Below are positions 22,126-51,622 of a stretch of 64,000 bases of DNA, one piece after another (the stretch's first letter is position 1; each line of letters opens with the position of its first letter). The DNA comes from Tubulanus polymorphus (lineage: Eukaryota > Animalia > Nemertea), in assembly GCF_964204645.1 (NCBI RefSeq), contig NC_134028.1, positions 11,269,263 to 11,333,262 on the forward strand, in the 5' to 3' direction. A model generated the notes under the pieces. The model was not told the DNA's origin and did not search any database. It was given only the letters and a program-made list of their open reading frames with translations. The position numbers and the translations under genes were made by a program.

Positions 22126-23082
22126 TTAATCCATCAATAATAATTTAGATTTATTTTCAACGACTTTATCATTTGACTTATTTTCTGGTATAATAGGTTT
22201 ATCATTATCATCATCTTTATTATTCGATTTAGCTTAATATTTATATATAACACCAGAGAATACAATTACTGTGATTAACCCAATTTTGATATATAAGTAA
22301 TTATTTCTTCAAGTATTATAAGAATTAGATGGATTATCATTCGAATCAATATCAGATAATTTCTGTGATTCATTTATATCAGTTAATTTCTTTTTTTTAG
22401 CTGTTTTCAATTCTGAAGATCTTTTACCTAATTCACTAGCCCATTTAATTTGTTTTTCAGATCTAGGTCTCTTCTTAATATCATCACTCATTTATTTTAG
22501 TTAATTTTTGTTCTGATTTAATATCAGTTTCGATATTATCTGATTTATTATCTGATTCGATATTATCTGGTTTATTTACTGTAGGTTTGAAATTAGAAAA
22601 TGTTATTACGCCAGTAGAAATTAATATCATTATTCCGCCTTATTGGAATGAAGCGTATCCAACCCATTTCTGTAATTCTGTCATAACTAAATAATAATTT
22701 TTAAATCACTATATAATTTATTTTCATCATCAATTGGTATTACTCGGTTACATAATTTAGAGTAACATTTAACTATTCCATCACTTATAGAGTCGTTTAT
22801 TCTAGCTAATCTAGCTTCTTCGTATATTTTGAAATGTTTGATTACTTTATCTGGTTTCATATTATCTAATTCTTGAAAAGTTATAATTCTATTTAAGAAT
22901 TCGTTACGCTTTCCGCTGGCAATTAATAATTCTAGATGATGCTTACATGTTAAATAGTATTTATAATCAATATTATTATTTTGAATACAATTAGTAACTA
23001 CTCTATCATTATTATCTGTAATACCTAAATCTTCAATTGTCTTTTCAATATCAATACTATTTTTACTCGATTTCTTCGACAT
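22126..23082 (-). pseudogene. Genes X and Y (copy A)
   Basis: Homologous to 54742-55735 and to Polinton 45775-46664; frameshifts/stops. Confidence 0.75.
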
Positions 23083-23423
23083 TTATATTAGAGAAAAAGT
23101 GAAAAAAATATTATAAGTAATCTTCAAATGATACTAATAACTCTCTGGGTCAAAACTAGTGTTTGATAAGTAATACTAGCTATTTGAAGATAATGAATTT
23201 TTATTCAAATCTTATCAAAATCTATTTAATTACTTTTTGAAAAGAAATAATAGATTTTGAAAAAATTGAAATAATGGCTAGTTGAAGATATGTAATTTTT
23301 AATACTTTTTTTAAAATTAGGATTTAATACCTCACTACTTTTGTCTATCTAAAGGAGCAGTAACTATAACTGTCCAGACAAGTCATTTCGGATTCTCGAT
23401 ATTAAATTCCTGTAAACTATTCT

Positions 23424-24106
23424 TTAACCACTTAATGAAGATTCAATGTATTGTTCATTATTTGGATCACTGTTCCATAATTCAATGAATTTCTTTGCTT
23501 TATCTAACTGATCTAAATATAATTGTAAATCTAGTCCATTTCCTTCCCTAATATTTTCCTTCTTTTCAAGATGTCTTAAATTTTTCCAATTCCAAATCAA
23601 TTTCTCATTGTGTTCATCGTTCATGTTAAATTTAGAAATCGGCAACACATGATCAATGTCGAAATATTCACCATAATTATTCATATTCATTTTTTCATTG
23701 AACTGATATATAATCCAGGATTTTAAGAATTCATCTGAACAATCCAATTAATAAGATAGTGTAACTGAATGTTTATCTTTACTGAATAAATGTGATAATC
23801 TAGACCTTAAGCATTGTTTCAATTTAAAATTAAAATCTGTTCGGCGCCTTTCTTTTTGATAATTTTTATTCAGTTCTTTATAATATTCTCTATTATTTGC
23901 TTGATATTGCTTAATCGAATCTTTGCCTGTTTCAGTATTATTTCTATAATTTTGTTTGTCACTTAGTTTACTACAAGTTTTACAATAACTTTGCTTACCA
24001 TCTTTCTGAGTTTTTGATTGTAATATTCTGATAATGATTTATCTAATTCACATTTTGAACATTTCTTATGGTGAATATTTATAGTTTGTGACTGTTTACT
24101 CTCCAT
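23424..24106 (-). pseudogene. HNH-family endonuclease (copy A)
   Basis: CSKC..CKTC N-terminus, IDHVLPISKF, NWKNLRHLEKKEN. Confidence 0.7.
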
Positions 24107-25184
24107 TTTGATATCCAATTTTTCATTAAAATTGATTAACATGTTTCCCTTTCTCTAAGTGAGATTTAGTTTTATTGTGTCTTGCTTTTTGAAATTTATC
24201 TATATTGATTTTACATGTTGGACAGTAGTACTTCTTATTTGCTTCCATTTTAATATCAAATTTTTTATTAAAATTGATTTTAGAAGTTATTCATATATAA
24301 AATATCATTTATATGAATATTATTAGAGTAATTGGTAATGTCTTGTTTCAAGTCAAAGGTTGAGGGGGTGAGTGAGTAGAAAAATGAAAATAAATTCGAG
24401 CGTGCGAGAATTTATTTTCATTTTTTTATGAGCTTTCAGTGAAAAAGAATTGGTCGTGATAAATTTTATATTCGATTTCTTGCAAAGTCAACATTGACAT
24501 TGTGTGGTCCATGTGGAGGAGGATATTGCGAATTTCCAGTGTGATCTGAGTAACTTGTCTTGACCAAGTCTCTTAATTTGACTGTCCCAACTTGCTGTCT
24601 GTATCAGGAAATCAGTAGGCTGAGGTGGATCCAAATATCTGATCTCACAAAGCACTAAGGAGTTCAACAATTGTAAAGTTTATTCAGATACTAAATATAG
24701 TCATTTTACAACACTGTATTAAAACATCATTTCACTAAATACATCTCACGAACGGTAGATATAGAAAGGATGTCCCCTGTTCCTTCAGAATGTTCTTTAT
24801 TCAAGGACGGGCGCGCATAGCTCAACTCGCATTAGATTTCGATCCTTGTTAGTTTGTATTCCGAGTACCAGGTAAATTATCAGCGGATTTATCTGATACT
24901 TACAGCAATGTCTTTCCGTCCATTGTAAAGGGCAATTTTGATATCGCTCAAAGCTAAGCAGATTCGAAGAGACGCCATCTTAACCAGGAAGTAACTTGCT
25001 ACTTTACATGTTTGACCTCGTTTGACATGCATCGAAAATGTAAAATGGAGGATGGGCACAACTGGTCTCTAATTGACGATAGAGACCGGTAAGCAGTCTA
25101 ATGAGAGGGGACAGGCAACCAGTCTACTATGTATGGTCTGAAATTCGACTGGATTATGAGAATGCCGGTTTGCTAGTGTATCTA

Positions 25185-26711: not shown

Positions 26712-26804
26712 AGTAATTGGAAAAGTGGGCTTTCAGACCAGAGGACGAGAGGACGAGACACCTCTCATCACCACAAGTAATTTTTTTTTCTTATAAATGG
26801 GAGA
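26712..26804 (+). repeat. Polinton left TIR
   Basis: AGTAATTGGAAAAGTGGGC...TTATAAATGGGAGA is the reverse complement of 47179-47271. Confidence 0.97.
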
Positions 26805-29800
26805 GAGTGACAACACACAAAACAAATTGATGTTAATGAAAATCAATATTATTGCACATATTGTAAAAAATACGTCGATAAATCTAATAAAACACGACAT
26901 GAAAAAACTGCAAATCACATAAAAAATGTTATAGATTTTGAAACACCAGAAAATTCCAATGAAAGAAAAGAAAAATTAGAAAATATGAATGTGGATGAAA
27001 TAAAATGTGAAGTTTGTAATGAATTTATAGTAAAAAGGAATTATAAAAAACATATCAAATCACAAAAACACCATCAAAATTTAAGTAATTATATTTTAGG
27101 AATAGATTATTTCAATGATAAACCTCAAAAAGTAAAAAAACCAACTTCAAAAACTAAATCCATTTCAAATAAACGTTACATGGAAAATGTTAGAAATTAT
27201 ATCGATTCACTAGAATTAAAAGATACAATTGAAATTTTAGAAACATTACATAGTAAAATTGGTCCTGCAGCCATTATATTTAGATTTTTTAAAGGTACAA
27301 AAATAGTAGATTATAGTAAATTTAATGAAATAATGGGAAAAATACTAGATTTCATAACAGATGTTGAATATCCAAAAATTAGTATCTCTGGGAAAGTAAG
27401 TTTTTTTAAAGTCAGAAGATAAAATGGATTATGATATTCAAACAATGATTCAAACTTTACAACAGAAAAGGATATTAAAGGATCATCTTATATTAAATTA
27501 CCATTTACAACAAAAGCAGTAATAAATGTTCAAAATGAAGATAATGAAGGTTTTCTATGGTCAATTATTAGTTGCTTACACCCAACAGAAGATATTACGC
27601 ATAGATTTAGAATAACAAATTACCGGAAATATGAAACATTATATAAAATTGATCAATATCCAGTAACTATAAAGATGATTCCTAAAATAGAAAAAGTTAA
27701 TAATTTAAAAATAAATGTATTTGAATTAATGCAATTACCAAAGACAAAAGGTGAAATTATTAAAGATTATACATTAGAAGCTTTATATTTAACAGAATAT
27801 TATGATGATGAAAATGCTATAGATTTGTTATATTACAAAAAAAGATGAAAATGAACATTATATGTGGTTAAAACAAATTGATTTATTCTTTAGAACAGAA
27901 AGTGATCATCATCATAAAATTTATCTATGTAGAAAATGTTTATCTAAATTTATAACTGAGAATACATTATTAAAACATAAAGAATTATGTGATAATAAAG
28001 ATTTTTGCAAATTAATAATGCCAACAAAAAAAGATTGTAAGTTGAAATTTATCAATCATAAATTTAAAAATATTGTTCCATTTGTAATTTATGGGGATTT
28101 CGAATCGTTGAATGAAGAATTAACTGATCAAGATAGAAAAGAAATATACAATAAAAAGCAATTTTTAAAATCAATGGATAAAGGAAATGAATTAAATGAA
28201 GATATAATTCAAGATCCACCAATTATAAACACAATTAAAAAAGTTCATCAAAGAGCTGCTGCTTATGGAATTAACATAAAATGAAATTATCCTGAATTAT
28301 ATGAAAGTCAATATATTTCTTTTAGAGGTGAAGATGTAGTTAATGATTTTTGTAACAAAATAATTGAAATAGAAAGTGATTTTGCAAAATTATTAAACAA
28401 AAATAAAAGAATAGTTATGACAAAAGAAGATGAAATTGATTTTAATTATGCAACTCATTGTTGTTATTGTGAAAAACGTTTTTATTCATTTGATAAAAAA
28501 GTTAGAGATCACGATCATTTAAATTCAAAAAATCGTGGAGCTGCTCATGAAGATTGTAATTTACAAGCTAAGAAAGTTAATTTCGTACCAATATTATTTC
28601 ATAATTTATCGGGCTATGATACCCATCTATTTATAAAACAATTATCAGGAAAATTGGGCGCAATTAATCAAGAAATAGAAGAATATAATGCTATGAATGG
28701 TACAAATACAAGAAAATATGATTTTAAACTATTAGCTAAGACATCTGAAAATTACATTTCATTTCAATTTGGTTGCATTAGATTTTTAGATTCTTATAGA
28801 TTTTTAGCAAGTTCATTATATAATTTAGCAAAAAGTTTAGTTGATAATGATTTTGTAATAACTCGACATTATTACCCAAATGAACAAGATTTTAAATTAG
28901 TGAGATATAAAGGCGCAATTCCTTATTCATTTTATAAAACACATGGTGATTTTAATGTAACAGAATTATTAAAAGAACAACTTTATGATCAATTAAAAGA
29001 GGAGTATGTGAAAGATGAAGTTTTTAATAGAACATTAAATATTTGGGACCATTTTAAGATAGAAAATCATGGTGAATTAGTTGATCTTTACTTGAAATCA
29101 AATGTTATGATATTGGCTGATATATTTGAAAAATTTAGAGAAGTTAATTTAAATTATTTTAATGTTGATCCCTGTTATTGTTATTCAAGTCCTGGTTTAA
29201 CTTGGCAATGTGGTTTAAAATATACTAACGTAGAATTAGATTTATTAAAAGAACCAGACATGGTTTTATTATTTGAAAAATCAATTAGAGGTGGAATTAG
29301 TGGTGATGGGAGATAGGTATTTTAAAGCAAATGATGAATGTAAATTATTATGTATTGACGCCAATAATTTATATGGTTGGGCAATGATGCAACTTCAACC
29401 ATACAAAATTTTTATATTAACAGAAGTTGAAAATGATGATAAAACTGATTGGGAAAGCGCAATTATGAGTTTAAAAGATGAGGCACCAATTGGTTATTTC
29501 TTTGTTGTTGATTTAGAATATCCTGATAACATAAAGTTTAAAACAAGAATCTTACCTTATTGCCCAGAACATTTAACCGTAGATGATAGTTATTTAAGTG
29601 AATACCAGAAGAAAATAAAACCGAAAGATCATGTTTTTACAGAAAAATTGATATTAACACAAAATAATAAATATAATTATATTGTTCATTATAGAATGTT
29701 AAAATTTTATCTAAAACAAGGAATGAAATTAAAGAAAGTACGTAGATATAATGAATTTGATCAATCGAAGTGGTTAGAAAAATATATAGATTTTAATACA

Positions 29801-31121
29801 CAACAGAGAACCATATCAAAAACAGATTTTGAAAAAGATTTCTTCAAATTAATGAATAATAGTTTTTATGGTAAAACATGTGAAATATTAGAAATAGAAA
29901 TGATATTGAATTAGTAAATAATTCTGAACGATTAAGACATTTATAATCAAGCCCTTGAAATTTAGGAAATAAAAGATTCGAAGATTATTTAACAGCAGTA
30001 AAATTAAAAAGAACGTCAATGAAATTTAATAAACCTATATTCATTGGTTCAACTGTTTTAGAAGTATCAAAATTATTAATGTATGATTTTTATTATAATG
30101 TTTTACAACCACTTTTTGGGGAAAAGCATATTGAAATATTATATTTTGATTCTGTAACAGCTGACACCCCAATATTATTAAAATACAATAACCAAATATT
30201 AATTAGAAGAATTTCAGAAATAATTCCAAAAAAAAATGAACTTTATATTTCATATGGTGAAAAAGAATTAATACAAATAAATGGATTAATGGATGTTTGG
30301 ACAAGAAATGGATGGAAAAAATTAAAGAATATAAATAGACATAAAACAAATAAGAAAATCTATAGAGTTAGAACTAAATTAGGGTTTGTAGATGTTACAG
30401 AAGATCATAGTTTAATAAAACGAAATGGTAATGAAATAGAACCAACTGATATAAAAATTGGAGATGAATTATTACATAAAAGATTTTTCCAAAGAATGAA
30501 TCATATGTCATTTGATGAAATAATTGATAATATTTATAATATAGAACGTGAATCATTAGAAGAAAAAGAATATTTTATCAAAGGATTCTTTATGGGTGAT
30601 GGTTCAGCAGGTGTGTATAATTATGTTTGGGGTAATAAATAGTGTTGGTATTTGCGCAATCAAGATTTGAAATTATTAGAAAGAATAATGAAATACTGTG
30701 AAGAAGTTTTATTCACATAAAACATTTTGAATCATGGATGTTATGAAATCATCAGCAGTTTATAGAATACTCGTTAATAACCCTAAAGATTTTGCTATAA
30801 AATATAATGACGAATTCTATATTCAAGCAATAGTGAAAAGTAATACTTCAACCAAAGAAAAGATAGTGCCAGATTATGTATTAAATGCAGAATATAATCT
30901 TAGAAAATGGTTCTTCATTGGATTCTACGCAGCAGATGGTGCTAAAAAATTTACGAGTTCTCCAGCAATAACATTTGCACAAAAAGGTAAAGTTGGTATT
31001 TCAGGATTGAATCTATTATGTAATTCATTAGGGGCGAACTCTTTTATCGCGACCGAAACCTCCATTCGAACTCCCCGGTGAAAAGTAAAATAGAATGCGA
31101 TCGGAGGAAGTGTGGAGACCC

Positions 31122-32528
31122 ATGATGGCGACGGCGGGTGACAGTTTAACGCTGGCTTTGCCACTCTGATCAGAGTTATTTGATAACGACGATCTAGAGT
31201 CCTATCACTATCACAACGTCGAAGAAGAGAAACTTAAATATCAAGTTGTACTATGCTCGACTCAGTAAGTATCTTAAACACGCACAAGCCATGAGGTTTA
31301 CTTTCTTTTCAATTCAATTAATATGATTTTATTTCGTTTGTCTTAGACTTAATTTTGTTAATAATTAAGTTGCATATGACCTGCATGATAGGAGCTAGGG
31401 GGCATAAATATGTTAAAAGCCACTAAAAGTTAATGTCAGTCTTGTCTGGTGTTCAACATCTACAACTTCCGTGAAAAGTTCTATCATTTTTTATTTTTCA
31501 GGCTGCGGTCAGACAGGATAAAAATAAACATGTACACAGAAAATATAGCAAGTGAATACTTGGACGAAGATTTCAAACGTTTATTCAGATTATCTCGAGG
31601 CACATATGCAACTCTGAGTAATCTACTCGAACCATTACCAGAGATGCAAACTGCAGTAATAAACAGAGGTCGACAGGCAGTTAACGCAGAAAAAAAGATC
31701 CTTGCCACTTTGTGGTATCTAGGTACATTGGACACAATTAGACAAATCTCAGACAGGTTCGATGTTTCTGAATCGTGTGTTCTAAAGTGTATTACAACGG
31801 TATTATCTGCTATAACTAATGGACTTACAAAAAAGATAATTAAATGGCCATCAGTTGAAGAGCAGGAAGAGATTTCTGATGGATTTTACCAACGTAATGG
31901 TTTTCCTGGAATTATTGGGGCAATTGATTGCACACACGTTGAAATTAAAGCTCCTCGCAGGCCAGATAAACAAGTGTTTGTGAACCGGAAATCATATCAT
32001 TCCATGAATGTTCAGGCAGTGTGTAAAGACGACATGCGCTTCACCCATATTTATGTCGGCTGGCCGGGAAGCGTGAATGATTCGAGAATATTAAAAAACA
32101 GTGACTTGTAGAATAATTTCGGTTTATTTGGTGACAAACATATTCTGGGCGATGGAGGTTATCCCTGTCGCAGATGGTTAGTGAGGCCATATCGTAACGA
32201 TGGCAATATGACTCGAGCTCGTAGACGATTTAATTACTTGTTGTCCAGTAATAGAGCAGTCATAGAAAGAGCGTTTGGTAGAGTTAAAGGTCGATTTAGG
32301 CGTCTCCATTATGTCAATGTCCATTCCATTAAAAAAATTATTATTATCATCACCTCTGCATTTGTCTTGCATAATATCTGTTCAATGTCAGATGAAGATG
32401 ATCTTGAAGATTTACATGACGTTGTTGACGATGGCCTGGAGGCAAATAATGGTGCCGAGATCATAGGTGCTGATCATGAAGGAGAACAGTATAGAAACGA
32501 TTTAAGATTGCAATTGGTTGGAGAGTAG
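31122..32528 (+). pseudogene. Harbinger (HARBI1-like) DDE transposase
   Basis: FRLSR, GAIDCTH, NRKSYHS, GWPGSVNDSRI, GDGGY, IERAFG; in-frame TAG at 32109; inferred intron 31265 (GTAAGT) to 31501 (TTTCAG). Confidence 0.9.
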
Positions 32529-33617
32529 TATATCTTCTACCTTGCATACAAAGTTTTAATGCATTTGTAACACTTAAGTCATTAAATTAGTATTCAAGTC
32601 ATTTCTTTTTGTCCAATTCAATTATTTGCACACAGGTGACACAGAAGTTTGGTTTAGAGACTGAGGATGTTTGATGTATCAACTTTTATCAAAATGCGGC
32701 CTCGACTCCCTGCCCCATTAGAATTTCACCAATTTTAGACTGCCTTAATAGCCACAATAACAACAATTGTTTTCATTATAATATACGAGGAGTTTAAAGC
32801 AATCAATTTCGAATTTATCATAACAGTGCATGCCTGGCTTCATGTGCAAAGTATACTATGCGTTGGATTTTTGTGGCTATTAAAATTTCTGCCAAAAGTT
32901 TATCATTCAAACTTCTCGGTTAACCCCCTTACACTGGATGCTGACCAGGGCCCCTAACTCCTTCCAAACCAAAAATGTTTTTCAAGGTCCTTGGATTTTG
33001 AAAATTTTAAGGTTTAAGGCCTAGTTGTTATACACACAGATTCTACTGAATTAAATGGTTTACCTGGATAAACAGTACTGATTTAGGAGTCTTAAATTGT
33101 GATATGAAAGTGATGTATACACTCCTCGAAAAGTCCTTGAATTCTGGAATGACTGATCCGTAGGAACCCTGCTGATTGGAAACTGTTTCTCTGTTCCATA
33201 CCGCCCACAATTTTACTAAAGAGAATGCCATGAAAGGTATTACAGCAAAGGAACAAAATGTTATTATAAACGTAAAATAAAATTTTTATTATGGAAATCC
33301 TCCATCATAAAATTATAAAAATATAAATGATAATATAATTTCCCCATTTTATCACGTAACCAAAATTTCCCTCATTTTTAGAACCGCTCCCCTTACCGCA
33401 AATTCAAACAGTATGTAATAGGATTGTGAAATGATATAGTACGAGATATACCGTAGCATAAGTCATTTACAAATATTTTCAATCAAATTAGTGAAAACTG
33501 TAATGTACAACTGAAAAAAAACTTGAGGTAGTCAGACTTATGCGTACCTTTTATCATAAAACAGCATTTAAAATACTGTATTGAACAAGCTGGATCTTTA
33601 CTTTTTTGAAATAGCAC

Positions 33618-34292
33618 TTACAAAATCTTTGAACAAAGACATTTTTCATTATGCATTTGCATGGCCATGTCCTTGTCTATTTTACGTCGTTCCTCAGCTC
33701 TTTCTTCCATGGCCCCCAAATATTCAATTACTGTTGAAGCTGCTGATTTTTTTGTTCTACATTTATCCGATGGAGAGATTTCATCAAGCTTTCGTTTTTT
33801 AACAATAGGTGATAATTCACTATCATCATCAGTAGATGAATCATGAAGAGGATTACTATCTCTACTACTGAAAGTAACTGGTTTTATATTTGCCGATTTT
33901 ACACCAAGAGCGTCATCCAGCTCATTTTCATACACATAATCTTTGACATAGCCTGAACCCGATTTATTTTTTGCATCTTTTACATTTTTAAACCCTGTAT
34001 TTATAGTTCTCCATCTACCCCTTATTTGCTCAGCACTAAAATCAAAATCATCATTCTGCATTTCTTTTGCGATCTTCATCCACAACATGGACTTACGCAT
34101 CTTCCCTTCATTTACTTTATCAATATTTTTGCGATACAAATCGATCAACTTGAGGGTTGACTGTTTGGTCCATTTTCCACTTGCAGTACCAGCCTCGTCC
34201 ACTATTACACTCCGAGTTTCGGAAACAGTTAGATTTTCAATTGACCCTGAAAAAAAACCTAGTCTAATAACTTTGGAAGAATAAACCATCAC
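33618..34292 (-). CDS. Harbinger Myb/SANT-like DNA-binding protein (last exon)
   Basis: WTKQSTLKLIDLY..LWMKIAKEM..QIRGRWRTI trihelix tryptophans; upstream exons not resolved. Confidence 0.85.
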   Translation of the reverse strand: MMVYSSKVIRLGFFSGSIENLTVSETRSVIVDEAGTASGKWTKQSTLKLIDLYRKNIDKVNEGKMRKSMLWMKIAKEMQNDDFDFSAEQIRGRWRTINTGFKNVKDAKNKSGSGYVKDYVYENELDDALGVKSANIKPVTFSSRDSNPLHDSSTDDDSELSPIVKKRKLDEISPSDKCRTKKSAASTVIEYLGAMEERAEERRKIDKDMAMQMHNEKCLCSKIL

Positions 34293-35295
34293 ATGTTTTT
34301 AAATAATTTGCAACCAAATCCTTTCCAAATTTTAAAAAAATAATGTTTTGTTGATTTTCTGCAGTATTGCAATGTCAATGCTTCTTGACTTCCTTATTGC
34401 CAACTGCCAAATGAATCTACTAAAATATTAAATTTGGCCACGATGCCCCTGAAATATATGTTTAATATGCAGTTAGATAGAAAACATTCGAATATGATGC
34501 ATATGTACATACCTGAAGTTGATGCTTCTTTATATTCAATATGAAATGCTACACCGGCATCTTGCGTTTCTCCTATAATTTAATCAAGGCGACAAATTTA
34601 AAACTGGAATTTTGACACGTACAACTTACAAAACCGTTCAAAAAGTGAAAACGGGCCTATAGCCAATGTAGAGTGATTCTTTAAAAATATGCATACCGGT
34701 GCCACCCTGTGCACGTGCGCACAAAACGTATCATAATTTCGTAGCAGAGTTTTCAGAATACATGTATCTAAAAATATTACATAAACAAGAAATCAACATG
34801 TACTGAGTGGAAGTATTACGAGATAATGAAGATTAGAGTTAACTACAAAACTCCATGAATTAAAAGTCATCTAAATATTTAAATCATTAGTTGAAAAAGG
34901 CAAGTCATGAATTAACATAAATTACCATATTCATTGTGGCACAGTCGACTAATTATGAAAAGTTACACTAAACACAAGTAACACTACGACACTGAATTGA
35001 TTCTGCATTCATTCTAATGAGGTTCAGTATGCCGCCACAGCTTATGCCTTACCTCTTTGATGAATTATTCTATTATAGATATCATTTTCGACGACAAGTG
35101 TTATCGTCTGGCCATTCCTCTCAATCGTTAAGGCTTTTGTTGAACCAAGGTTGTCCTGGCCAGAAGGTGCTCTGTAAATATAAATTAATCCTACAAAATT
35201 AATTTAATTTTTTAAGCTACTCTAAAAAAAATTAAACCTTCGGCCTATAGATACATAACCCTATTTTTTCCAATTGCCATGTTATAAAGAAGCAA

Positions 35296-35513
35296 GGTAA
35301 AAGTGCAGATCCGCACCTCTCGTGATCGACGCAATCTACTGAATGACTGAATCCAGGCTAAAATCTTTCTAATGATGATATCTTAAAATTTACCAATGGC
35401 AATGTACTGAATTGAATTGCTGATGTCTGATGACATTTTGAATCTGAAACAATGATATCTAATGTAATTGATTGAACCGTTTATGCGAAGAGGTGTGGAT
35501 CTGCACTTTTACC
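35296..35513. mobile_element. Merlin-like MITE inside Harbinger 1
   Basis: TIR GGTAAAAGTGCAGATCCrCACCTCT; 8-bp TSD AGAAGCAA at 35288-35295 and 35514-35521. Confidence 0.8.
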
Positions 35514-36578
35514 AGAAGCAACTTAGGCCTGCCCTTAGGAGGTTAAGTGATCTGCAAATGGAATACTGCTACTTTTTAATGAATAAAATTGCATTGGATT
35601 GAATTTGTTTGATTACAGGCTAAGTTGAAAACACGTCGCCGATGGACGGATGAGGCGCATATATTATTGCGCGTCGGATGTCTATGATCAATAGAATGCA
35701 AACCTGGATAACAATATACAAATATGTCTTTTCCAACAAGAAAATAGAGAGGATAGGTAGAAAATAATAGGATTCATACCGCACTGTCACACGTTCGGTC
35801 GCCATGTTGGCTCCACACAAAATCCGAATCACACCACCTCGACAGAAAGGAGGTTTCGGAGACTCCAAAAAGTCACGTGACCAATAAAAGAGTACGATTG
35901 GAGGCAAACGGATTCTCCGATCTGATAAAAGAGTTCGCCCTAGGTTTTAATATGAATATTGGATTGATTAAATCTATGCCAAATTGTTTTAATCTAAGGC
36001 ATACAGAAAAAGAAATAACTGAAGAAGTTAAAGATTTATTTGAAACATCTAACCCATCAGATTATGTTTATGATTTATCAACTGAAGATGGCACATTTAC
36101 CTGTGGATTTCCATTAATAGCGGCCAATACTGATGCGTACATACTAAAAATCAAGACAAATGACATAACAAAAGACTTAAAAACATTAAAACATCATTTT
36201 GATTCTAGCAATTATCCCAAAGATCATGAACTATTTAGCAATGATAATAAAGATTCTTGGTAAGTTTAAAGATGAATTAGGGGGTGATGAAATGATTGAA
36301 TTTGTTGGGATAAGAAGTAAAATGTATAGTTATAGAACAAAAGATCATGAAGCTAAAAAGTTAAAAGGAATAACAAAACATGTGGTTGATAAACATATAG
36401 AGTTTCAAGATTGTACTAAGTGTTTATATAACTCAATTGTAATGAAACATAAAATGAATTGTTTAAGATCAGAAGATCACGAGATGTACATTAATGAAGT
36501 TGAAAGAACTAGTTTGAATCCATTTGATGATAAAAGATATATTTTGGCCGATGGAATAAAAACATTACCTTATGGTTA

Positions 36579-37451
36579 TTAAAACATAAAATCAAGATCA
36601 TCATACTCGAAATCGCTACTGGTTTCTTCATTTTTATTTAATTGTTTAGGTTCTTCCATTTCATTTTTCTCATTTAAATAAAGTTCTATATTGTACCACA
36701 TTTCATCTCGCTTTCTTTGTTTCTTTTTGTTCGTTAATTCATCAAATGGAATTATAATATCGATGTTTAAAAAATTTACAATCTTATTTAAAAAGAATTC
36801 ATAATTAATTGAATCTGTTATTCTATTATCCACATAATATCTTAATATTTTTTTTGAATGTTTCTTTTATATTTTCCATATCTTGTTCTGTTAATTTAGG
36901 TTTTTTATAATAATCGTTGAATAATAGATATAAATACATTTTCTTTTCTTGTGTGTTAAATGTTGATGGAATAATTGTTTTATAATATCTTTTTTAGTTA
37001 TTTCACCATTTTTATTTTCTATCATTTTCATTTTGTCAAGCCATTGCTTATATTCTGGTGTATGATCTTCCATAGAAAATATCTCAAATATTTCATTTAG
37101 ATTTTTTAATTTTGGTTCTATAAGAATATCTCTAGTTTTTTCATCACCCCATAAATTCCTTTGCCATCCACATTCATTACAAAACATCACAGAATTTTCT
37201 TGTCTTAAGTACTCATAAATACATTGTGGGCATTTTTTTCTATCATAGCTTGGTAATAGATCTTCATTAAGTTCTTGGTATTTACTTACGTTTTCTTTAT
37301 GTTTTTTTGTTCTATTAAGTAGATTTAAATTACTTGTTGTAATAACCAATTTACAATATTTACAATATGTTTTTCTTACTAATTCATTATATTGTTTTTC
37401 TAACTTTTCAAGTGTTTCTTCATTATCTGGTAACGTTTTCTCATATTTCAT
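36579..37451 (-). pseudogene. Polinton accessory Zn-binding protein (two ORF pieces, possibly one gene)
   Basis: YCKYC, CPQC..CNECG; convergent with pPolB. Confidence 0.5.
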
Positions 37452-37459
37452 TTTTTCTA

Positions 37460-37890
37460 ATATTTTATTTTTTCTTTCATTGAATTCTGTTTCAAATTTA
37501 TTAGAAATTTTATCTATATGTGCTTTACGAAATTGATGATTCTCCCAATCTTCTATATTTTCAGGGCTATATTTTATTCGACAATGCTCACAGAAATGAT
37601 CTTTTACATTATTCTTATCATAGAATAAGAAAGGTCTTTTCCAAATAATTTCAGGTTCAGTTTCAACAGAATTACTATTACTTTCGTTACTATCAACATT
37701 AACCGTTGTGTCTTTAATTTTACACTTCTCTGAATGTTTTTTAACATAATTTCTTGAGAATAATTTATTACAATTTGGGCAGTTTATTTTAGGGGGTTTA
37801 TAATTTTCATCATGTTTTTTTCATATGTCGAGCCATATTACTTTTTCTTAGAAGTTCACCACAAATTTCACATGGTATCTTCTCATCCAT
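37460..37890 (-). pseudogene. Polinton C2H2 zinc-finger protein, frameshifted
   Basis: TAAATG start; MDEKIPCEICGELLRKSNMARHM, then CPNCNK and CEHC in other frames. Confidence 0.55.
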
Positions 37891-37959
37891 TTATTTAGGA
37901 AAAATTTTATCAAAATTAATTTTTAGTGATGAGAGGTAATTTTTTTATGTTATAAATAA

Positions 37960-38715
37960 ATGGTAGAATTAAAAGAATACTGAATATTTGTTGATTCTAG
38001 AAGACTTACAAATTATAAATCACATTATTTACTAGTACAATTAGATAGAGAATTTAAGAATTGTGTTGATTTAAAATTAATAAATGTAAGTTTATGTAAT
38101 TCTTTTTATAATATATCGGATAAAACCTTTGAACATAGAGGGTTTATGATTTATATGAGAAATAAATATAAATGGTTTCATCTATTTTTAAAACCAGGAT
38201 TATATAATTTAGAATCATTAGCGCAGGAAATTAATAGAAGAGCTCGGTTGAAAATCGGGGGCACTTCTGTATTTGAAATTAAATTTAATAAAATTGATAG
38301 TACTAATAAAATAAGAATAAAGATATCTAATGAACAGCATAAATTCATGGTAAACAAACCAATGGCTAAAATGTTAGGAATTAAACCGCTTACAGTTACT
38401 GGAAACGCAGAAGGAATCTCAAATATAATACCTTTTACACACTTTTATATTTATTGCAATTTAATCGATCCTACAAAAACTTTCGAAGCTACTAAAGAAA
38501 CAATTTGTAGTTCTAGTATATTAACTATTTTACGGCTAAAAAATGTTAAACAATTTGGAACTCAAATAAATTATAATTTAACAGAATGTGATTTTAAACC
38601 TTGTATTCCTCAATTTAATAATTTTAGATTAGAAGTAAGAAATCATAATGGATATTTAATTGATTTGAATAACTTTCCTATAATTTATGAATTAATTATA
38701 AGATGTAGAGAGTAA
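37960..38715 (+). pseudogene. Minor capsid protein (penton) candidate
   Basis: One TGA at codon 8; IFVDS..NSFYNI at the N-terminus, FYIYCNLID..FRLEVRNHNGYLIDLNNFPIIYELII at the C-terminus, the pattern of Polinton pentons. Confidence 0.7.
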
Positions 38716-38731
38716 TTTTTTCACTATATAA

Positions 38732-39292
38732 ATGAATATAACTGTTGGAGCGAGTATATGTTTTGGATTCGATTTTAAATATGAGAAAGAAATGAAATTT
38801 AACAGTACTGATGTAATTACGCGTATTAAAAATATTGCATTTTCTAATGAAACAACATTTGAGTATGAAAAAACAATAGATAAAGAAACTTTAAATGTAG
38901 AAAAGATTGTTAACGCTTTAGCATTTACTGGTGGTGGTTATTTATTTAAGCATATTGATAAGAATGGTTCATTATCAGAACAAAAAAGACATAATTTAGC
39001 ATTAGAGAAATACAATAAAGCAGCAGAAGAATATAGAGAAAAGTGGCAAAACTATATGGATTATATTAACAAGGAATTATATGATCAGAAAATTTCATAT
39101 AGAGATTTTCAATCAGTTGATGATGCAATGAGTTTATATAACGCAGTAACAAATAAAGAAAAATTACATCTATACAAACCTAAATTATCAGATTATTATA
39201 CCCCAAGTAAAGAAGAACAGAAATATGAAATAATTTGGATTTTAGGCGGAACAGTTATTGTTATATTTGTAGCATATAAATTTACTAATTAG
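38732..39292 (+). CDS. Polinton protein of unknown function with C-terminal TM helix
   Basis: ALAFTGGGYLF..EQKRHNLALE; hydrophobic tail; TAAATG start. Confidence 0.7.
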   Translation: MNITVGASICFGFDFKYEKEMKFNSTDVITRIKNIAFSNETTFEYEKTIDKETLNVEKIVNALAFTGGGYLFKHIDKNGSLSEQKRHNLALEKYNKAAEEYREKWQNYMDYINKELYDQKISYRDFQSVDDAMSLYNAVTNKEKLHLYKPKLSDYYTPSKEEQKYEIIWILGGTVIVIFVAYKFTN

Positions 39293-39311
39293 TAATTTTT
39301 TTGCTAAATAA

Positions 39312-39742
39312 ATGGATGATAAAGTTGATAATATTGATATTATTCCTCATGATATAAATAAAACTAAATTAAAAATAAATTTAGAAAAACAAATATTAGA
39401 ATTTGAAAGTGACTTAAAAATAAAAAAGAAATATTTAAAAAGTAAAATTGTATATTTTTTATTATCAGTGGTTCAGTTACAATTAGTTCTGTAATAACAT
39501 TTCTAGCAAAATTCAGTCCATTACCACCTTTAGCTATATCAATTGGTGTGTAAGGTTTAAGTTCAAGTGTTAGAACTGGCATAAGTTCAAAATTAAATAT
39601 AAAAAGTAATAAAGAAAAAATTAAAACTAATATAAAAGAAATTAATAAATTAAAAAACACACTAGATTATATAATAAGTTTAAACGGTAACATAACAGTT
39701 GAAGAACAAGATAAGTTATTAAAAGAATTAATAAATTATTAA
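39312..39742 (+). pseudogene. Small protein with hydrophobic hairpin and coiled coil
   Basis: TAAATG start; frameshift near 39460; SGSVTISSVITFLAKFSPLPPLAISIGV followed by K/E-rich helix. Confidence 0.5.
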
Positions 39743-39758
39743 TTTTTTTATTATATAA

Positions 39759-41132
39759 ATGGTAGATAGTTTTCCAAAAGCTTTTCAATATAACAAATCA
39801 ATTAAATATAATATTCCTGCAATAGATTTTAACAAAAATATTACATATAAAAATTTAGTTTTAAATTCATCAACTAATCTAGAAATTTATGTTACTGAAA
39901 CACAGTTTTTTATTTCTAAGATGGAAAATATATTTAATAAATATGAAGTTACTTTTACTTGAGATGAACATCATATATATAAAGTAAAATCTAATATGAA
40001 ATATTGGCAGAATCAATTAAATTTTGCTGTTTAATGTGCAACAACTGGTTGTGGTATAAGTTGGAATGATCATTTAAATAACTTAGATAAAAATTTGAAT
40101 TATTCTGATTTAAAATTAATTCACACAATATTTAGATTTCACACATATTTTCAAATCAGAATAATTTTAAATGAATTAGAATGTCCTTTACCCGGATCTA
40201 AATTGTTTAAAGAATTGGATAATAATATTAATCCATCTAAGTTTTTTAAAATATGTAATGAATTTAATATAAATATTAATTCTGATTTTAGAGTGCATGG
40301 TAAATTGCAAGGTATTGGTGAACAGTATGAAATAAAAAGAATTGATTATATGCATAGAATTGGAGCTTATCATAATTATAAAATTGATAATAATAATTGT
40401 TGGATTAATTTTATTTTAGAAAATAGTGAAGATTTTACTGAAGCTGGAATACAAAGAATAAATCAATCTATTAGAACTTATTTGATATGTATTTTAGGTG
40501 CGCAAGTTGAAACAAGATCACCAATAGTTGGAAATGATAACACTTCATTTGATACACAGAAACAATTCAAAGTATTATTTGAAGATTCCATTCATAATGA
40601 TAAAAATAGATTGATTCCAGAAAACATTGTAAGATATCAAAATTATTTAGATAAATCACATATTAGATTAAATTATTGTATAGGCCCTAATCTATTAATT
40701 ATTTATAATGATTTAGTATTAAAGATGGGAAATATAATTGGTTATAATAATCTAATTAAAACTGCAACAATAAATAATTCATTTGGATTGAATGATATAA
40801 ATAAAAAGATAATTACTGCTCCAAAATTAATGGAAGGTGAAAAAAATAAAAAACATATTCGATCAACAGAAACTAAAACTAATAATATAAAATTAAATAA
40901 TGATTCTAAACCGGATTACAATACTATTGAAAATGGTGCCGCACGGCACCCACACGGTGATATTAAAACTGATAATATTCAACATGAAATAATTAAACTA
41001 AATGATGATAATAAATCCCATGAAAATGCTAAATTAGCTATAACTTGTATAGGAATTGTAATCGGAGGAACATTATATTTTAAATTTCAATTTTTTTATT
41101 ATGTAAATGGCAGAAGGTGGAGAAGCTTATGA
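39759..41132 (+). pseudogene. Polinton protein of unknown function
   Basis: ORFs 39759 and 40095 are in frame across stops; WQNQLNFAV.CATTGCG, FRFHTYFQ, ILGAQVETRS; hydrophobic C-terminus. Confidence 0.7.
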
Positions 41133-42533
41133 AGTGGGAGAAATGGGAAATAATAATGATGATAATAATGATGATGATAATAATGATGCTGAAACTAATA
41201 TTGATAATGATGATGAAACAGCGTATAGTTCTAATTTAGGAAATAGTGGTTCTAATGCCCCATTAACAGCTGACTATGATAGAAGAACTAGATCGAGAAT
41301 AAATCCTGAAAATGAAAATTCAGATTTAGTAAAACAAAATTTAGAATATAATGAATATATTCATTATTTCCAACCTATATTTGGAAGATCTGGGTATAAT
41401 ATAAATGCCAGAGGCGCCAGACTTTTAGTACAAGAATTAAAATTTTTTTTAAGGTGAATTTCATTATCGTTTGAAAGATGATTATTATATTGATATCTCT
41501 TATAAAAAACTAAACAAAAAATTAGCAGAATCAACTTTGCTTAAGTTAGACCTATCTTGAATTAAAAGAATAAGAAATAGTAATGAAATAGAAAATGGTA
41601 CCAGCACAGAAATTATTAAAAATGAAAGAGTATTTAAACAAAGAATTAATGACTTATTTGAAACAATCAATAATAATTTAGAACCAGAAACAACTTCTGG
41701 TAAACTTAAATCAAATAAAGTTCCAATTGAAAAACTTTTACCAAATGGTTTACTTGATGCAACAGATCAAGAATTAGAAGATTTAGATATATTTTCTGAT
41801 AAAGCAATAAGAGAAATTATTAGTATAAGAAATGAAGCTGATAAATTTGCACATAATATAAGTATAAGAGATTTTAAAATTAGAACTTTAGAAAAAGATA
41901 GAACTGATAAAATTAAAGAAATAGAACAATTAAAATTAGATAGAGATAATAAAGTTATTGAAGAAATTGAATTTATAAAAAGAAATGCATATTTAGAAAA
42001 AGAAATAGATGATTTAGAATATAACAGAATTTCAGAAAGAAGAAATTAAATTATTATTAAAATTATATGATTATAATATTAATAGATTAAAAGTTATTTT
42101 TAAAAATTTGTTGATTAAACCAGATTCAGAAATATCATTGAAAGATAGAATAAAATTATTATTTAAGTTAGAAGGAATAACAATTCTTTCAATTCTAACG
42201 GCTGTAACTATGGTATTTACAACAATTGGTTTAGCTATATCAAATTCACTGAAATCTACACCATATCCTAATAAACCAGATAAACCCCCGAATGATAATA
42301 ATTCTATACAAGATAAAGTTAAGGATGGTTTAAAAAAATTAGCAAAATATTTATGGGAACTATCTAAAAAATCTGCTGCAGCTTTACCCGGAGTTATTGC
42401 ACCAATTGTTGGTTTTATATTGAAATCTGCAGGAAACATAATTAACTTTGCTGCTGAACATATTATTTTATTTTTAATTACAGTTGTAAGTGCTATTATT
42501 TTTGGGTTAGTGAATATGACAAAAAATAGATAA
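41107..42533 (+). pseudogene. Acidic N-terminus / coiled-coil / multi-hydrophobic-helix protein
   Basis: TAAATG start; frameshifted; C-terminal hydrophobic and amphipathic helices (AAALPGVIAPIVGFIL). Confidence 0.6.
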
Positions 42534-42553
42534 TTAATTTTTTTGTTAAATAA

Positions 42554-43796
42554 ATGAGTGGGAGTTATATAAATCCTTCTAAGAATCATAGAATATCTAA
42601 TGCTATTAAAGCAGAAAGATCTCATCATATAATTACTCATAACCCTTCCAATATTAATCCCGATGAAACTTTATAGAATCCCTAGATTATCAAAAAATAC
42701 TTTTTATGTTCCAAATAGTATTTATTTATCAGCTGATATAAAAGTAACTGGCAATAATAATAATTATATTGTTGATAGTGTTCGAAGATATTTGATTAAA
42801 AAATTAACTATAAAGATTGGTCCAGAAACAGTTTTCTCATTAGATGATTATAATTTATTTATGCATTATAAAGATTTATGGTTGACTAAAGAAGATAGAA
42901 ATAATATGATATTTCAAGGCATCCAATCAGAAAACCAAAATAAATTAAGATCAGGAGCTAATGACGCAATAGTAACTCGTACCGCAGATAATTTGATTAA
43001 AAAGATTTATGGAAGCAAATATCAAATTCCATTAAAGTTTGAATTGATAAATAATAATGCACCTTTGTATAAATACGCAATACAAGAAGATGTTATATTC
43101 GAAATAACATTTGCTCCTGTAAATGAAATTGTATTATCTAGCGTTGTTAAAGATATGGGTTATAAATTATCAAATATATGTTTAGAATATGATACAGTAA
43201 CTGATGAAAATATTGCTAACACAATTCAAACTCAATACAATCAAGGATTTTCATCATTATATGATTATATTGATAAATTTAAAACTGTAACTATTAATGC
43301 AAGTGATGAAATAATTAATGAGAATATTAACTTCCCAAGAAGATCTATTAAAGGTATATTAATATTTTTCACAACTGCAACATATTCTACTGGCGCAATA
43401 CAGGTCGATAATTATCATAATCCTGAAATAACAAAAGTAGTAATAACTATCGAAGGAATAGCAAATAAAATATTTTGTCAATCAATGAGAATGATAGATC
43501 AATGGCCAGAAATTAGAAAACATTTTATGAATGAAAAAGTAAAATCATCTGAAAATTGTAATATTAATCAAATTGATTATTATACCGGCAATAAATATGC
43601 ATTATGGTTAGATTTCAGAACAACAGAGGATAATTCATTACATGGTTCTGGGAAAAAACTACAGAACACTAAAGATGGAATACAATTATTCATGAAAAAG
43701 AAAAAAGGAATCAAAAATTTTAAAATGCACATTTATATTATATCTGACGCGAAATTAAATATTGTAAATTCTCAATTAGGTAGTATTCAATATTAG
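42554..43796 (+). pseudogene. Major capsid protein (double jelly-roll) candidate
   Basis: ~410 codons with one frameshift near 42675; INPSKNHR..ITHNPSNINP, LSNICLEYD, NINFPRRSIKGIL, YALWLDFRTTEDNSLHGSG resemble Polinton MCPs. Confidence 0.8.
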
Positions 43797-43826
43797 AAAT
43801 ATTAAGTTAAAATTAACAATATATAA

Positions 43827-44953
43827 ACGGGTGGTAAAAAAACTCCTAAAACTAAAGAACAATATTTAAGAAATTTATATTACAACCCTGAGAGTTCGGT
43901 TGCTTATTCTTCTGTAAAAATTATATGGCGTCAAGTAAAACAAGATAAATTAGTTAAGATAATCCCACAAGATTTAGTTAAATATAAAGATATAAATGAA
44001 TTTATGTCAGAACAACCAACATATACAACACATAAAAAAATTGTTAGAAAATATAAAACTCGTAAAACTATGGTAAGTTATGTAGATCAACAGTGGCAAG
44101 GAGATTTAATTGATATGAAAAATGTGAAGAAAGATAATGATGATTATTCGTGGATATTGAATATGATTGATATTTTTAGTCGTTATGTATGGAGCTTCCC
44201 ACTTTACAGAAAAGATGCTGTACAAACATCAAATGTTTTAAGAAAATTTCTTTCGGATGATAAACTAAAACCAGAAAAAATACAATTTGATGATGGAAAA
44301 GAATTTGATAATTCACTAGTTCATGAACTCTTAGATAATCATAATATTAGATATTTTTCAACAAAATCGGATAAAAAAGCAGCAGTTGTTGAACGATTTA
44401 ATAGAACATTAAGAACAAGAATGTGGAAATATTTTACAGCAAATAATACTTTTAAATGGATTGATGTTTTACCAAAATTGATAGAAGGTTATAATAATTC
44501 TTACCATTCTTCTATTGGAATGAAACCTATTGATGCTAGAAAACCTGAAAATGCTGAAATTGTTTGGAATAATTTATATGGAGCATTTCTCGTAGATGAT
44601 TTTGGAGAACCTAAATTTAAGTTGGTCAAAATGTTAAAATTTCTAAGTATAAAAAGATATTTGACAGAGGATACGATCGTAATTTTACTAGAGAAATATA
44701 TAAAATAAAAAAGGTAATAACAACAAAACCATATGCCTATAAATTAGAAGATTTAGATGGTGAAGAAGTTGATGGGTACGTTTATGAAGAAGAATTAAGT
44801 TTAACTACTGAAAATCTAGAACAAGAATATAAAATTGAAAAAGTGTTAAAAACAAAAACTATTAAAAGAAAAAAATATTCTTTGGTAAAATGGGTTGGAT
44901 GGCCAGATAAATTTAATGAATGGATATTATCAAGTAAAATTAAAAATATATAA
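43827..44953 (+). pseudogene. Retroviral-like (rve) integrase with C-terminal chromodomain
   Basis: WQGDLIDM, IDIFSRY, QFDDGKEF, VERFNRTL; YKIEKVLK..LVKWVGWPDKFNEWI. Start appears mutated (TAAACG); frameshifts after 44620. Confidence 0.92.
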
Positions 44954-45544
44954 ATGAATAAGGAATTATTTATATTTGAGCCTCATAATATGTTAATTTC
45001 TGGCGTAAAAAATTGTGGAAAAACTTATTTTATATTAAATTTATTAGAAACTATTTATAAAAACTATTTTGATAAAATAGTATTATTTTGTCCAACATAT
45101 GAATTTAATCAAACTTATGATAGAAATATTACTAGAAATAATAAATTTATTATATTTAATCCTAAAACAGTTAAAGAAAATTTAGATGATTGTATTAAAA
45201 TAGCAATTGATATATATAAAGGATCTAATACATTATTTATCATAGATGATTGTGCTAATCTACATGATTCAAAAGTTAGAGAAAGTGAGTTATGCTATTT
45301 AGCTTTTTCTGGGAGACATTTTGGGATAACAACATGGGTTTTAAATCAAAAATATAATTCAATTGTTAAAGATTTTAGAGAAAACATTAGATTTCTAGTT
45401 TTATTCTACAATAAAGATAGAAAATCGATGAAAAATGCACTTGAGGAAAATGATATTATTCCACATGATTTACACAATGAATATATGGATAAATTGAAAA
45501 ATAATAAAAGATCAAAATTACGATTACAGCACCCATTTAAATAA
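44954..45544 (+). CDS. A32/FtsK-like packaging ATPase
   Basis: Walker A GVKNCGKT, Walker B FIIDD, SGRH, LNQ. Confidence 0.92.
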   Translation: MNKELFIFEPHNMLISGVKNCGKTYFILNLLETIYKNYFDKIVLFCPTYEFNQTYDRNITRNNKFIIFNPKTVKENLDDCIKIAIDIYKGSNTLFIIDDCANLHDSKVRESELCYLAFSGRHFGITTWVLNQKYNSIVKDFRENIRFLVLFYNKDRKSMKNALEENDIIPHDLHNEYMDKLKNNKRSKLRLQHPFK

Positions 45545-45556
45545 GAATTTATTTAA

Positions 45557-45743
45557 ATTCAACTAGCTTGTTAATCTAGTATATTTTAGTTACATTCTAG
45601 TTGAATTCTAGTTGTTAGTAGTTGAAACACAAATCAAATAAAATTCAACAAGAAATAAATAAAAACAACAATATTTCAACTAGCTTGTTAATCTAGTTGA
45701 ATTCTAGTTACATTCTAGTTGAATTCTAGTTTAATTCTAGTTG
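45557..45743. repeat. Intergenic CTAG-rich direct repeats
   Basis: TTCAACTAGCTTGTTAATCTAGT twice plus several (GA)ATTCTAGTT units. Confidence 0.7.
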
Positions 45744-45774
45744 CAACAACACAACTAATTTGTTTGTTATGTAA

Positions 45775-46664
45775 ATGGGAGGGGAAAAGAAAATAAAATC
45801 TAAAAATAGTGATGTTCCAATTGAAAAAACTTAAGATGATTTAGGAATAACAGAAACAAAATTAACTCCAGATGATGGTGCTTTAAATAATGTTACAACA
45901 AATAATAATTATGAATATTATCTTTACTGCAAACATCAATTAGAAATATTAATAGCATCTAGGAAATGTAAAAATTTTATCGGTAAAAATTTAACTTATA
46001 ATGAATTAGATACAATGAAATCAGATGAAATTATTAGATTATTTAAGATTTATGAAACTGCGAGAACAGCTAGAATTAATGATGCGATATCAGAAAATGT
46101 AGTAAGAGGTTACAGTAAATTATGTAAATACATGCTACCAATTGAAGATGAAAATAGATTATATTCCGATTTAAAAAATGATTATTTAGTTATGACTGAA
46201 TTAAATAAATGGATTGGATATTTATCATTTCAATTAGGTGGATTTATGACATTATTATCAACTGGAGTTATAACATTTTCAAATATTGAATGTAAAAACT
46301 TTTCTATAATAAATGAGCAAGGTGGAAGAAGTGAAGAAAAAACCGAGAAATCCGAAACAAATTGAATGGTCTCGACAATTAGGAATTAAATCACAAGAAT
46401 ATAAAAAAGCTGTAAAAGAAAAATAAGTAATGAAAACGTTAATAAAAATGGTGAAAATATTGTTATTTCTACTCCTTCTAATAATAGAATATTTGATAAA
46501 TATCTATATTTTGCAGCTGGATTTGTAATTGTATTCATTTTGATTGGGTGTAGTTGGTATAAGAAATCAAATAAAATTTATGATATTTATAATTCTGAAA
46601 CAACTGCTATTAAAAATGAAAATACTTCTGGAATTCCAAAATTGACAATAAAAAAATGGATTAA
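45775..46664 (+). pseudogene. Polinton genes X (45775-46365) and Y (46313-46664)
   Basis: YYLYCKH, LYSDLKNDYLVMTEL; Y has PKQIEWSRQLG plus a TM helix; homologous to genes in copies A-C. Confidence 0.75.
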
Positions 46665-46860
46665 TATTTTAGAAAAAAGCAAACAATTTTTTTTAATTAA
46701 TTGAATATCACCTTGTGGGTTCCGTACGGCACCATCTCACTACTTTAACTATCACTGTGTGGGTGCCGTTTATGGCACCATCTCCGCGGAGCAATTGAAT
46801 TGTCCAGATAAGTCATTTCGGATTCTAGATATTCATTATTTTTATTATCAATTTATTTTT

Positions 46861-47186
46861 TTAATCAATAATTTCTAAATCATGATGACCATCTTCATTT
46901 TTTCCAGGATAGATTATTTCAAATCCTTCTAAATCTTTTAATTCCTCTGTACTCAATGCAACCCATTTATCAGGTAAAAATACTTTAAATTCTTGCGATG
47001 TACTAACATTACAGTAACTTAAATTCGCTGATACTTTCTCTCCATATTTAGTTTTTATCTTTTCTAATTTCAATATTTTATGTTCAATTTCTTTTGTAAC
47101 ATCAACTAACTTTTTTATTTCAAATTGGTTTTTGCTGGTTTTATTCTGTTACTTATTGTTGCTAAGAATGTTTTTCTATCTCCCAT
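46861..47186 (-). pseudogene. Small beta-rich protein (possible OB-fold), start codon inside right TIR
   Basis: KLEKIKTKYGEKVSANL..FKVFLPDKW; frameshift near 47120; fold is a guess. Confidence 0.45.
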
Positions 47187-47271
47187 TTATAAGAAAAAAA
47201 AATTACTTGTGGTGATGAGAGGTGTCTCGTCCTCTCGTCCTCTGGTCTGAAAGCCCACTTTTCCAATTACT
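47179..47271 (-). repeat. Polinton right TIR
   Basis: Reverse complement of 26712-26804. Confidence 0.97.
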
Positions 47272-51390: not shown

Positions 51391-51622
51391 CTTAAAATAT
51401 TCATATACATGAATAACATTTAAATTGATAGATTATTCAATATAAAAGTGTGAGCTCTTATAGAATAGATATATAGATATATTTTAAACATTATTTCAAT
51501 ATTTATATTTGTATGAGTTAGATTTTTAAACGTTAAAAGTGTTAGTAAAGTGTGATTGAAATAATACATATATAAATCATTGAACTTCTAAAATCAATTA
51601 AGTAAAAAAATATGTATAATAA

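Follow-up and report, generated by a model that had tools for sequence, protein, structure and literature searches.

An integrated Maverick/Polinton and its gene starts

A DNA stretch of 64,000 nucleotides from the nemertean Tubulanus polymorphus (NC_134028.1, positions 11,269,263 to 11,333,262), here called the window, contains at 26712-47271 an integrated Maverick/Polinton, a decayed copy in which nearly every gene begins with the signature TAAATG (Table 1). The element measures about 15.6 kb without a transposon nested in it, and most of its genes are interrupted by stops or frameshifts, including those for a DNA polymerase B of the protein-primed type (pPolB) and the integrase. With the group 2 Maverick/Polintons (Polintoviricetes), the ‘adintoviruses’ of PMC8502044, it shares terminal inverted repeats (TIRs), a 6-bp target site duplication (TSD), pPolB, an rve integrase, an A32-like ATPase and a double jelly-roll capsid protein. 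It differs from them in a signal resembling poxvirus late promoters on nearly all genes, an intein in pPolB, an open reading frame (ORF) resembling the late transcription factor VLTF3, as well as in lacking a detected protease. The maturation protease, which is typical of group 1, was absent from the 46 window ORFs in Pfam scans; these scans further covered 39 ORFs of TAAATG-bearing loci, within 97 scanned of 244 listed locus ORFs. The element presumably belongs to group 2, an assignment based on capsid features and the absent protease. Gene content of group 2 Polintons varies (10.64898/2026.06.19.733378).

A sequence-only reading of the window had listed 12 TAAATG starts in this element and TAAACG before the integrase, and all of them are present where it placed them. 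The starts at 26797(+) and 47186(-) are one sequence in two identical TIRs, so that 11 of 12 independent starts read TAA|ATG, the miss being the integrase. Because the genes are broken, the starts were verified by homology to an intact relative, locus L002, whose proteins align from residue 1-3 at 38732, 39312, 39759, 42554, 44954 and 45775, and from residue 7-22 at 37960, 37890, 46313 and 47186; 10 of the 12 positions are thus anchored, and 41107 and 26797 are without an anchor. TAA precedes 28 of the 606 non-start ATGs in the element (4.6%), and a shuffle null for the first ATG after a stop gives 6.5%, against which 11 of 12 corresponds to a binomial p of about 1e-12. The long interspersed nuclear element (LINE), Harbinger and Ngaro ORFs of the window lack the motif, as had been claimed, with TAA before the first ATG in 0 of 8. 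The AT-richness that was also claimed is real, Polinton genes having roughly 20-27% GC per kb vs 31-48% in the host and LINE part, but it is found in motif-free family members too. AT-richness and lack of introns, both common to family members without the motif, were consequently dropped as evidence.

Table 1. Features of the Maverick/Polinton and of the related elements in the window
Feature	Coordinates	Strand	Remarks
Maverick/Polinton	26712..47271		TSD 6 bp at 26706-26711 and 47272-47277; identified by TIRs, TSD and gene content
Left TIR	26712..26804	+	93 nt, identical to right TIR; carries T-tract and TAAATG start of pPolB (26797)
pPolB, broken	26797..36582	+	PF03175, E 4e-6; pieces align to pPolB of L005, L022, L023, L030, L044
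Intein in pPolB motif C	30151..36128	+	TIGR01445, 33.9 bits vs cut-off 24.5; interrupted by the nested Harbinger-like transposon
Harbinger-like transposon, nested	31032..35940		DDE transposase and Myb gene; genes without TAAATG
Zinc-finger/zinc-ribbon gene, broken	36579..37890	-	C-terminal part weakly VLTF3-like; TAAATG start with T-tract
Gene of about 250 aa, candidate minor capsid protein (by size only)	37960..38715	+	TAAATG start; homologue L002:565-1329; no family match above cut-off in Pfam scan
ORF fusing the start of one L002 gene with the body of another	38732..39292	+	TAAATG start with T-tract
Small membrane-protein-like gene	39312..39742	+	TAAATG and T-tract; L002 homologue matches SLATT weakly
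Conserved gene, about 440 aa	39759..41090	+	TAAATG and T-tract
Conserved gene, about 480 aa	41107..42533	+	TAAATG and T-tract
Double jelly-roll major capsid protein, frameshifted	42554..43796	+	TAAATG and T-tract; assigned by fold of homologue
rve integrase with chromodomain, broken	43824..44953	+	PF00665, PF00385; TAAACG (43824-43829) at expected start
A32-like packaging ATPase	44954..45544	+	PF04665, E 3e-13; TAAATG, the sole window start whose TAA is the stop of the preceding gene
Conserved gene, about 200 aa	45775..46365	+	TAAATG start
Conserved gene, about 130 aa	46313..46704	+	TAAATG start
Small conserved gene beginning within right TIR	46861..47186	-	Homologue L002:125-469
Right TIR	47179..47271	-	Same T-tract and TAAATG, starting the ORF at 47186(-)
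Small element 1	51239..57150	+	Integrase, ATPase, two accessory genes; TAAATG at 51623, 54742, 55337, 56820
Small element 2, inverted relative to element 1	57150..62425	-	TAAATG at 61997, 59869, 59276, 57800
Small element 3, more decayed	21325..24430	-	TAAATG at 23082, 22491, 21750

A two-part start signal in the lineage

The signature extends beyond this copy. A capsid alignment yielded 82 loci (the 80 best among 235 metagenome matches, and 2 more), in 64 of which the capsid start could be placed; it follows TAA in 15. The lineage of the window is represented by 13 loci, namely the 12 in its clade (support 99) and L067, which is absent from the tree. Enrichment holds against an AT-matched background, TAA|ATG being found in 46 of 54 lineage ORFs of at least 100 amino acids vs 1 of 49 in the 14 AT-rich family loci (GC <=0.39) outside the lineage. 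Among core genes anchored by homology, after two rows without a start were dropped, TAAATG is present in 31 of 34 in the lineage, in 12 of 12 from six other TAAATG loci, and in 1 of 17 from seven sister loci. The loci are related, and p-values given here therefore overstate independence and mark the most that the evidence could be worth.

In an element of about 24% GC, AT content or Kozak bias might be thought to produce such a pattern. The null rates, however, are only 5-8%, and the signature does not follow composition: it is found in 1 of 7 starts in L022 (26% GC), 0 of 4 in L035 (28%), 0 of 3 in L014 and 0 of 4 in L061, but in 3 of 4 in L005, at 44% GC. The base at -3 is T in the lineage, the opposite of the Kozak-like purine in most other family members. 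These null rates, GC contrasts and the -3 base refute the explanation, and its probability is negligible.

The TAAATG motif is one half of a larger pattern. Upstream of TAAAT, T occupies -9 and -10 in 90% and 80% of 49 lineage starts, vs 29% and 33% of 78 non-start TAAATG sites in the same loci, and in 10 and 9 of the 11 window starts. Farther upstream an A-rich pair at -15/-14 is conserved, with A at -15 in 80% of the 49 starts, and G follows the ATG in 35 of them. When a matrix was trained only on the 17 nt that precede 21 starts of distant relatives, it ranked the 12 starts of the Polinton above 28 other TAAATG sites in it, with an area under the curve of 0.94 (p 8e-6); the starts at 37960 and 45775 score low. 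The late promoter of vaccinia virus is described as TAAAT(G) overlapping the start codon together with a T, conserved and lying among further Ts, ten nt upstream (PMC11980589, PMC5294985), and many genes of salmon gill poxvirus are likewise marked by TAAATG (PMC4542343). Matched to these published descriptions, not to a set of poxvirus promoters, a bipartite signal with the apparent layout of a poxvirus late promoter is well supported. Shared with vaccinia are TAAAT across the start codon, with G as the usual next base, and the T-tract centred about 10 nt upstream; the differences are that the signal here stands on every gene class including the polymerase, that the element has no RNA polymerase among its scanned ORFs, and that the A-rich -15/-14 pair is additional.

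Head-to-head genes with TAAATG on both sides, 14-30 nt apart, were found in 7 loci. L042 (2766-2781) and L077 (2476-2492) have opposed start codons 14-15 nt apart, and each initiator, on the opposite strand, gives its partner Ts at about -10 to -12. This arrangement is possibly a two-way promoter.

Such pairs also bear on the idea that TAA is a by-product of gene packing, serving as the upstream gene's stop codon, as part of an AATAAA poly(A) signal or as a guard against read-through. The ATPase start indeed abuts the integrase stop, and 17 of 49 stops have an AATAAA no more than 60 nt away (background 0.15), although partly because AATAAATG contains AATAAA. Among the starts, however, TAA doubles as the stop of the upstream gene in just 1 of 49 in the relatives and 1 of 11 in the window. 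The motif is also retained in TIRs and in head-to-head pairs, where the strand concerned carries no gene upstream, and the T-tract at fixed distance is left unexplained. Stop-start coupling and poly(A)-signal overlap are rejected, the TIRs and head-to-head pairs being most of the refutation, and gene packing is highly improbable as the origin of the motif.

On the capsid tree, a single clade of TAAATG elements is rejected (approximately unbiased test, p 4e-5) and at least 3 changes are required, as calculated for 25 of the tree's 74 rows. That tree was made by a quick method and has no root, so gain and loss look the same on it; 9 loci were omitted because too little of their capsid was covered, and the placement of L066 and L077 is unsure owing to long branches. 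Occurrence outside a single clade is what would be expected if promoters track helper viruses. It is also cited for convergence, in which an element-specific core promoter or translation-start signal would be used by unaided host machinery and would resemble poxvirus sequences because AT-rich DNA arrived at the same solution. The motif is a short, AT-rich one, 35 of 49 starts have a G after the ATG, several branches carry it, and copy number is high. Convergence is nevertheless improbable, since the two parts and the distance between them agree with the vaccinia layout as published, the host-type elements of the window have the motif in 0 of 8, and most family members have a purine at -3.

The intein, the satellites and the surroundings

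The capsid gene has 955 homologues. The closest of them, P0001 (76% identical), was modelled with a predicted local distance difference test score (pLDDT) of 91.7, and Foldseek matched the model to the capsids of PBCV-1 and iridoviruses (E about 1e-16); the match to the mavirus capsid is weaker (E 6e-12). A search of PDB sequences with the capsid profile gave no match. Several Bartonella assemblies include capsid homologues of the P0024 cluster (54% identical), which are probably host DNA in bacterial records.

The aligned pPolB relatives have no intein at the position where the window gene carries one. A search with the intein returned 105 matches, of which 5 occupy the same site in Polinton-type pPolBs; these 5 and the window intein form one clade (support 96, fasttree), nested among inteins of RNA-primed DNA polymerases B and topoisomerase II. 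The host has many copies that span the intein. It is unusual for an intein to be carried by an element whose host genome is probably that of an animal, and a search of titles and abstracts gave no paper on such an intein among the matches listed.

Relatives of the window element carry further genes. L002 contains a deoxynucleoside kinase gene at 10340-10981 (PF01712, E 2e-31) with a TAAATG start, and a 408-amino-acid ORF of L001 had no usable Atlas match. Scans of viral contigs found one deoxynucleoside kinase relative and none for the capsid, the ATPase alignment, the window intein or a VLTF3-like ORF of locus L011, which is described below.

Three small elements nearby look like non-autonomous satellites of the Polinton; neither a capsid gene nor pPolB was seen in them. 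The sequence-only reading had extended the TAAATG signature to these elements, and this is correct for the four starts it named in element 1 and does not apply to the integrase starts (55742, 58914, 22119), which read TAAG|ATG. The ends of the small elements are self-complementary (51239-51390, 62231-62425), and an imperfect palindrome at 57031-57266 lies at the junction of the inverted pair. Elsewhere in the window, a short run of TTAGGG-type repeats is found at 26400-26450, about 260 nt left of the Polinton. A LINE at 13542-18933 has a DnaJ-like ORF ahead of ORF1 and, within ORF1, a GDSL esterase domain of the type typical of animal CR1/L2 elements. This LINE type and the telomere-like repeat run both point to a probable animal host.

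Proposed transcription by a helper virus or by the host

The sequence-only reading had proposed transcription by a helper virus. Its promoter component is strengthened, because the signal is lineage-wide, is not a product of AT content or Kozak bias, and has its T-tract at the vaccinia spacing. Judged from these sequence features, the lineage may be transcribed in the manner of a virophage by the late transcription apparatus of a poxvirus-like helper, a proposal with about an even chance of being right. The integrated copy would stay silent until a helper infects the cell, whereupon the helper RNA polymerase and late factors would recognise the T-tract and start within TAAAT. Slippage at the TAAAT initiator is known to generate a poly(A) leader (PMC6211774). 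Here, the polymerase would slip on AAA and thereby supply the leader that is otherwise missing where the start codon touches the initiator. A single late wave would then make pPolB, capsid, ATPase and integrase, leading to particles and new insertions, and the VLTF3-like gene, if real, would bias the helper polymerase towards the element.

Several observations weigh against a helper. Helper dependence and every step after the motif are matters that we infer. Apart from the A32-like ATPase, which is common to all Polintons, the Pfam scans gave nothing specific to poxviruses, neither a subunit of their RNA polymerase nor a capping enzyme. Short head-to-head gaps (3-18 nt, by first-ATG calls) also occur in the motif-free loci L026, L033 and L065. 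The nearest intein hosts outside Polintons include polymerases whose best solved-structure match is Pol delta, not poxvirus E9 (2 of 2 checked). The family is abundant in the host, with 10,400 contigs from run X1, and such a copy number is easier to reach if no helper is needed in the germ line; three DNA-like runs of one organism contain many divergent copies. Finally, VLTF3 serves viruses that have no RNA polymerase and probably use the nucleus (PMC11253617).

This last point leads to the gene at 36579-37890(-). It matches PF04947 with E 2e-4 (21.5 bits), or E 3e-5 (24.1 bits) when one break is read as X, just under the cut-off of 25. Intact homologues exist (P0226, P0227), and the gene is conserved in the L002 lineage (P0226, P0229), but P0226 and P0227 gave no match to PF04947, whole or trimmed. 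The middle of the gene had no match in a word-index search, the C-terminal part had no usable Atlas match, and PDB sequence searches with pieces of the gene found nothing. The name VLTF3, taken from sequence similarity, is therefore unconfirmed. Some polinton-like viruses (PLVs) carry VLTF3 (10.64898/2026.06.19.733378; PMC8502044), and mriyaviruses keep both VLTF2 and VLTF3 without an RNA polymerase (PMC11253617).

Such a factor raises the alternative that the signal is a late promoter of the type found in nucleocytoplasmic large DNA viruses (NCLDVs) but that host RNA polymerase II reads it in the nucleus, directed by the element's own VLTF3-like protein and with no helper. The weak match of the window gene and its retention in the L002 lineage speak for this, as do the mriyaviruses and VLTF3-bearing PLVs and the fact that L011 has its own weak PF04947 ORF along with its own promoter variant. 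The missing match in P0226 and P0227 speaks against it, and no VLTF2, TBP or TFIIB was matched in the scanned ORFs. The VLTF3-like gene and pPolB also bear the same signal, so that the cascade would lack a starter unless the host reads the signal first. Furthermore, a start within TAAAT leaves almost no leader without slippage, which has been described for poxviral and yeast-plasmid polymerases (PMC6211774). Transcription by host polymerase II with an element-encoded factor is on this balance the main alternative but unlikely, although the two proposals could be combined in a factor that acts on the helper polymerase.

A second apparent promoter type is found in a sister lineage that lacks TAAATG (L011, L012, L014, L015, L061). 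In L011 (49% GC), 9 of 12 starts have a T-tract and then TATA at a distance of up to 13 nt (background 1.9%). The parts of the asfarvirus late promoter are TATTT and TATATA (PMC5294985), and the L011 arrangement is close to that layout and to the one used for the pacmanvirus transpoviron (PMC11788076). The L011 ORF at 6543-7052 matches PF04947 weakly (E 6e-4), and its single-sequence model (pLDDT 42.6) was unusable. It is tentatively suggested, at somewhat less than an even chance, that some animal-integrated Maverick/Polintons are provirophages of Pokkesviricetes, each lineage having copied the late promoter of its helper: the poxvirus-type TAAATG in the window lineage and the asfarvirus-type TATA in the L011 sister.

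Virophages and transpovirons, like the window element, are small integrating or episomal DNA elements that lack an RNA polymerase and bear promoter motifs of large DNA viruses; in the window element, no RNA polymerase was found in the scanned ORFs. What sets the window element apart from them is a capsid of Polinton type, a probable animal host, a motif of poxvirus rather than mimivirus or asfarvirus type, and a helper suggested by the motif. In mavirus, nearly all genes reportedly bear the late motif of Cafeteria roenbergensis virus. It is established that virophages and transpovirons share promoters with their giant-virus helpers (PMC11464507 for a megavirus; PMC11788076 for a pacmanvirus). 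The yeast plasmids pGKL offer another parallel, as pPolB elements with TIRs and a TAAAN initiator by the start; poly(A) leaders are a feature of pGKL, which differs in having its own RNA polymerase and capping enzyme, a cytoplasmic location, and neither capsid nor integrase (PMC6211774).

An association between poxviruses and Polinton relatives has been described in insects, where entomopoxvirus occlusion bodies contain PLVs; two of these belong, as divergent members, to the mavpol2 capsid clade, and in the two that bear pPolB no integrase was detected (PMC11296320). The main text of that paper contains no ‘promoter’, ‘transcription’ or ‘motif’, that is, no promoter analysis of the poxvirus-associated PLVs. 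The word ‘promoter’ is likewise absent from the main texts of PMC10748475, 10.64898/2026.06.19.733378, 10.64898/2026.10.13.758929, 10.1101/2024.03.23.586382 and PMC8502044, and the excerpts of PMC9952930 and PMC5127031 have no promoter passage. Supplements and subscription journals lying outside the scope, TAAATG starts in Polintons are unreported among the literature matches listed. The additions made here are controls matched for AT content, a T-tract at a fixed distance, an occurrence scattered over the tree, a sister lineage of TATA type, a VLTF3-like gene and an intein.

These results touch on how animal Mavericks are expressed and whether their particles ever form, no virions having been seen for them (10.64898/2026.06.19.733378). 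If host polymerase II and a self-encoded factor were responsible, an NCLDV-type late system would be working with the host enzyme in a 15-kb element. If a helper is involved, animals would carry provirophages against poxvirus-like viruses, possibly as an inducible defence. Should the broader provirophage proposal be true, start motifs would name the missing helper family of each lineage and predict unseen poxvirus-like viruses in the hosts, and the proposal would account for Maverick particles never having been seen in animals free of infection.

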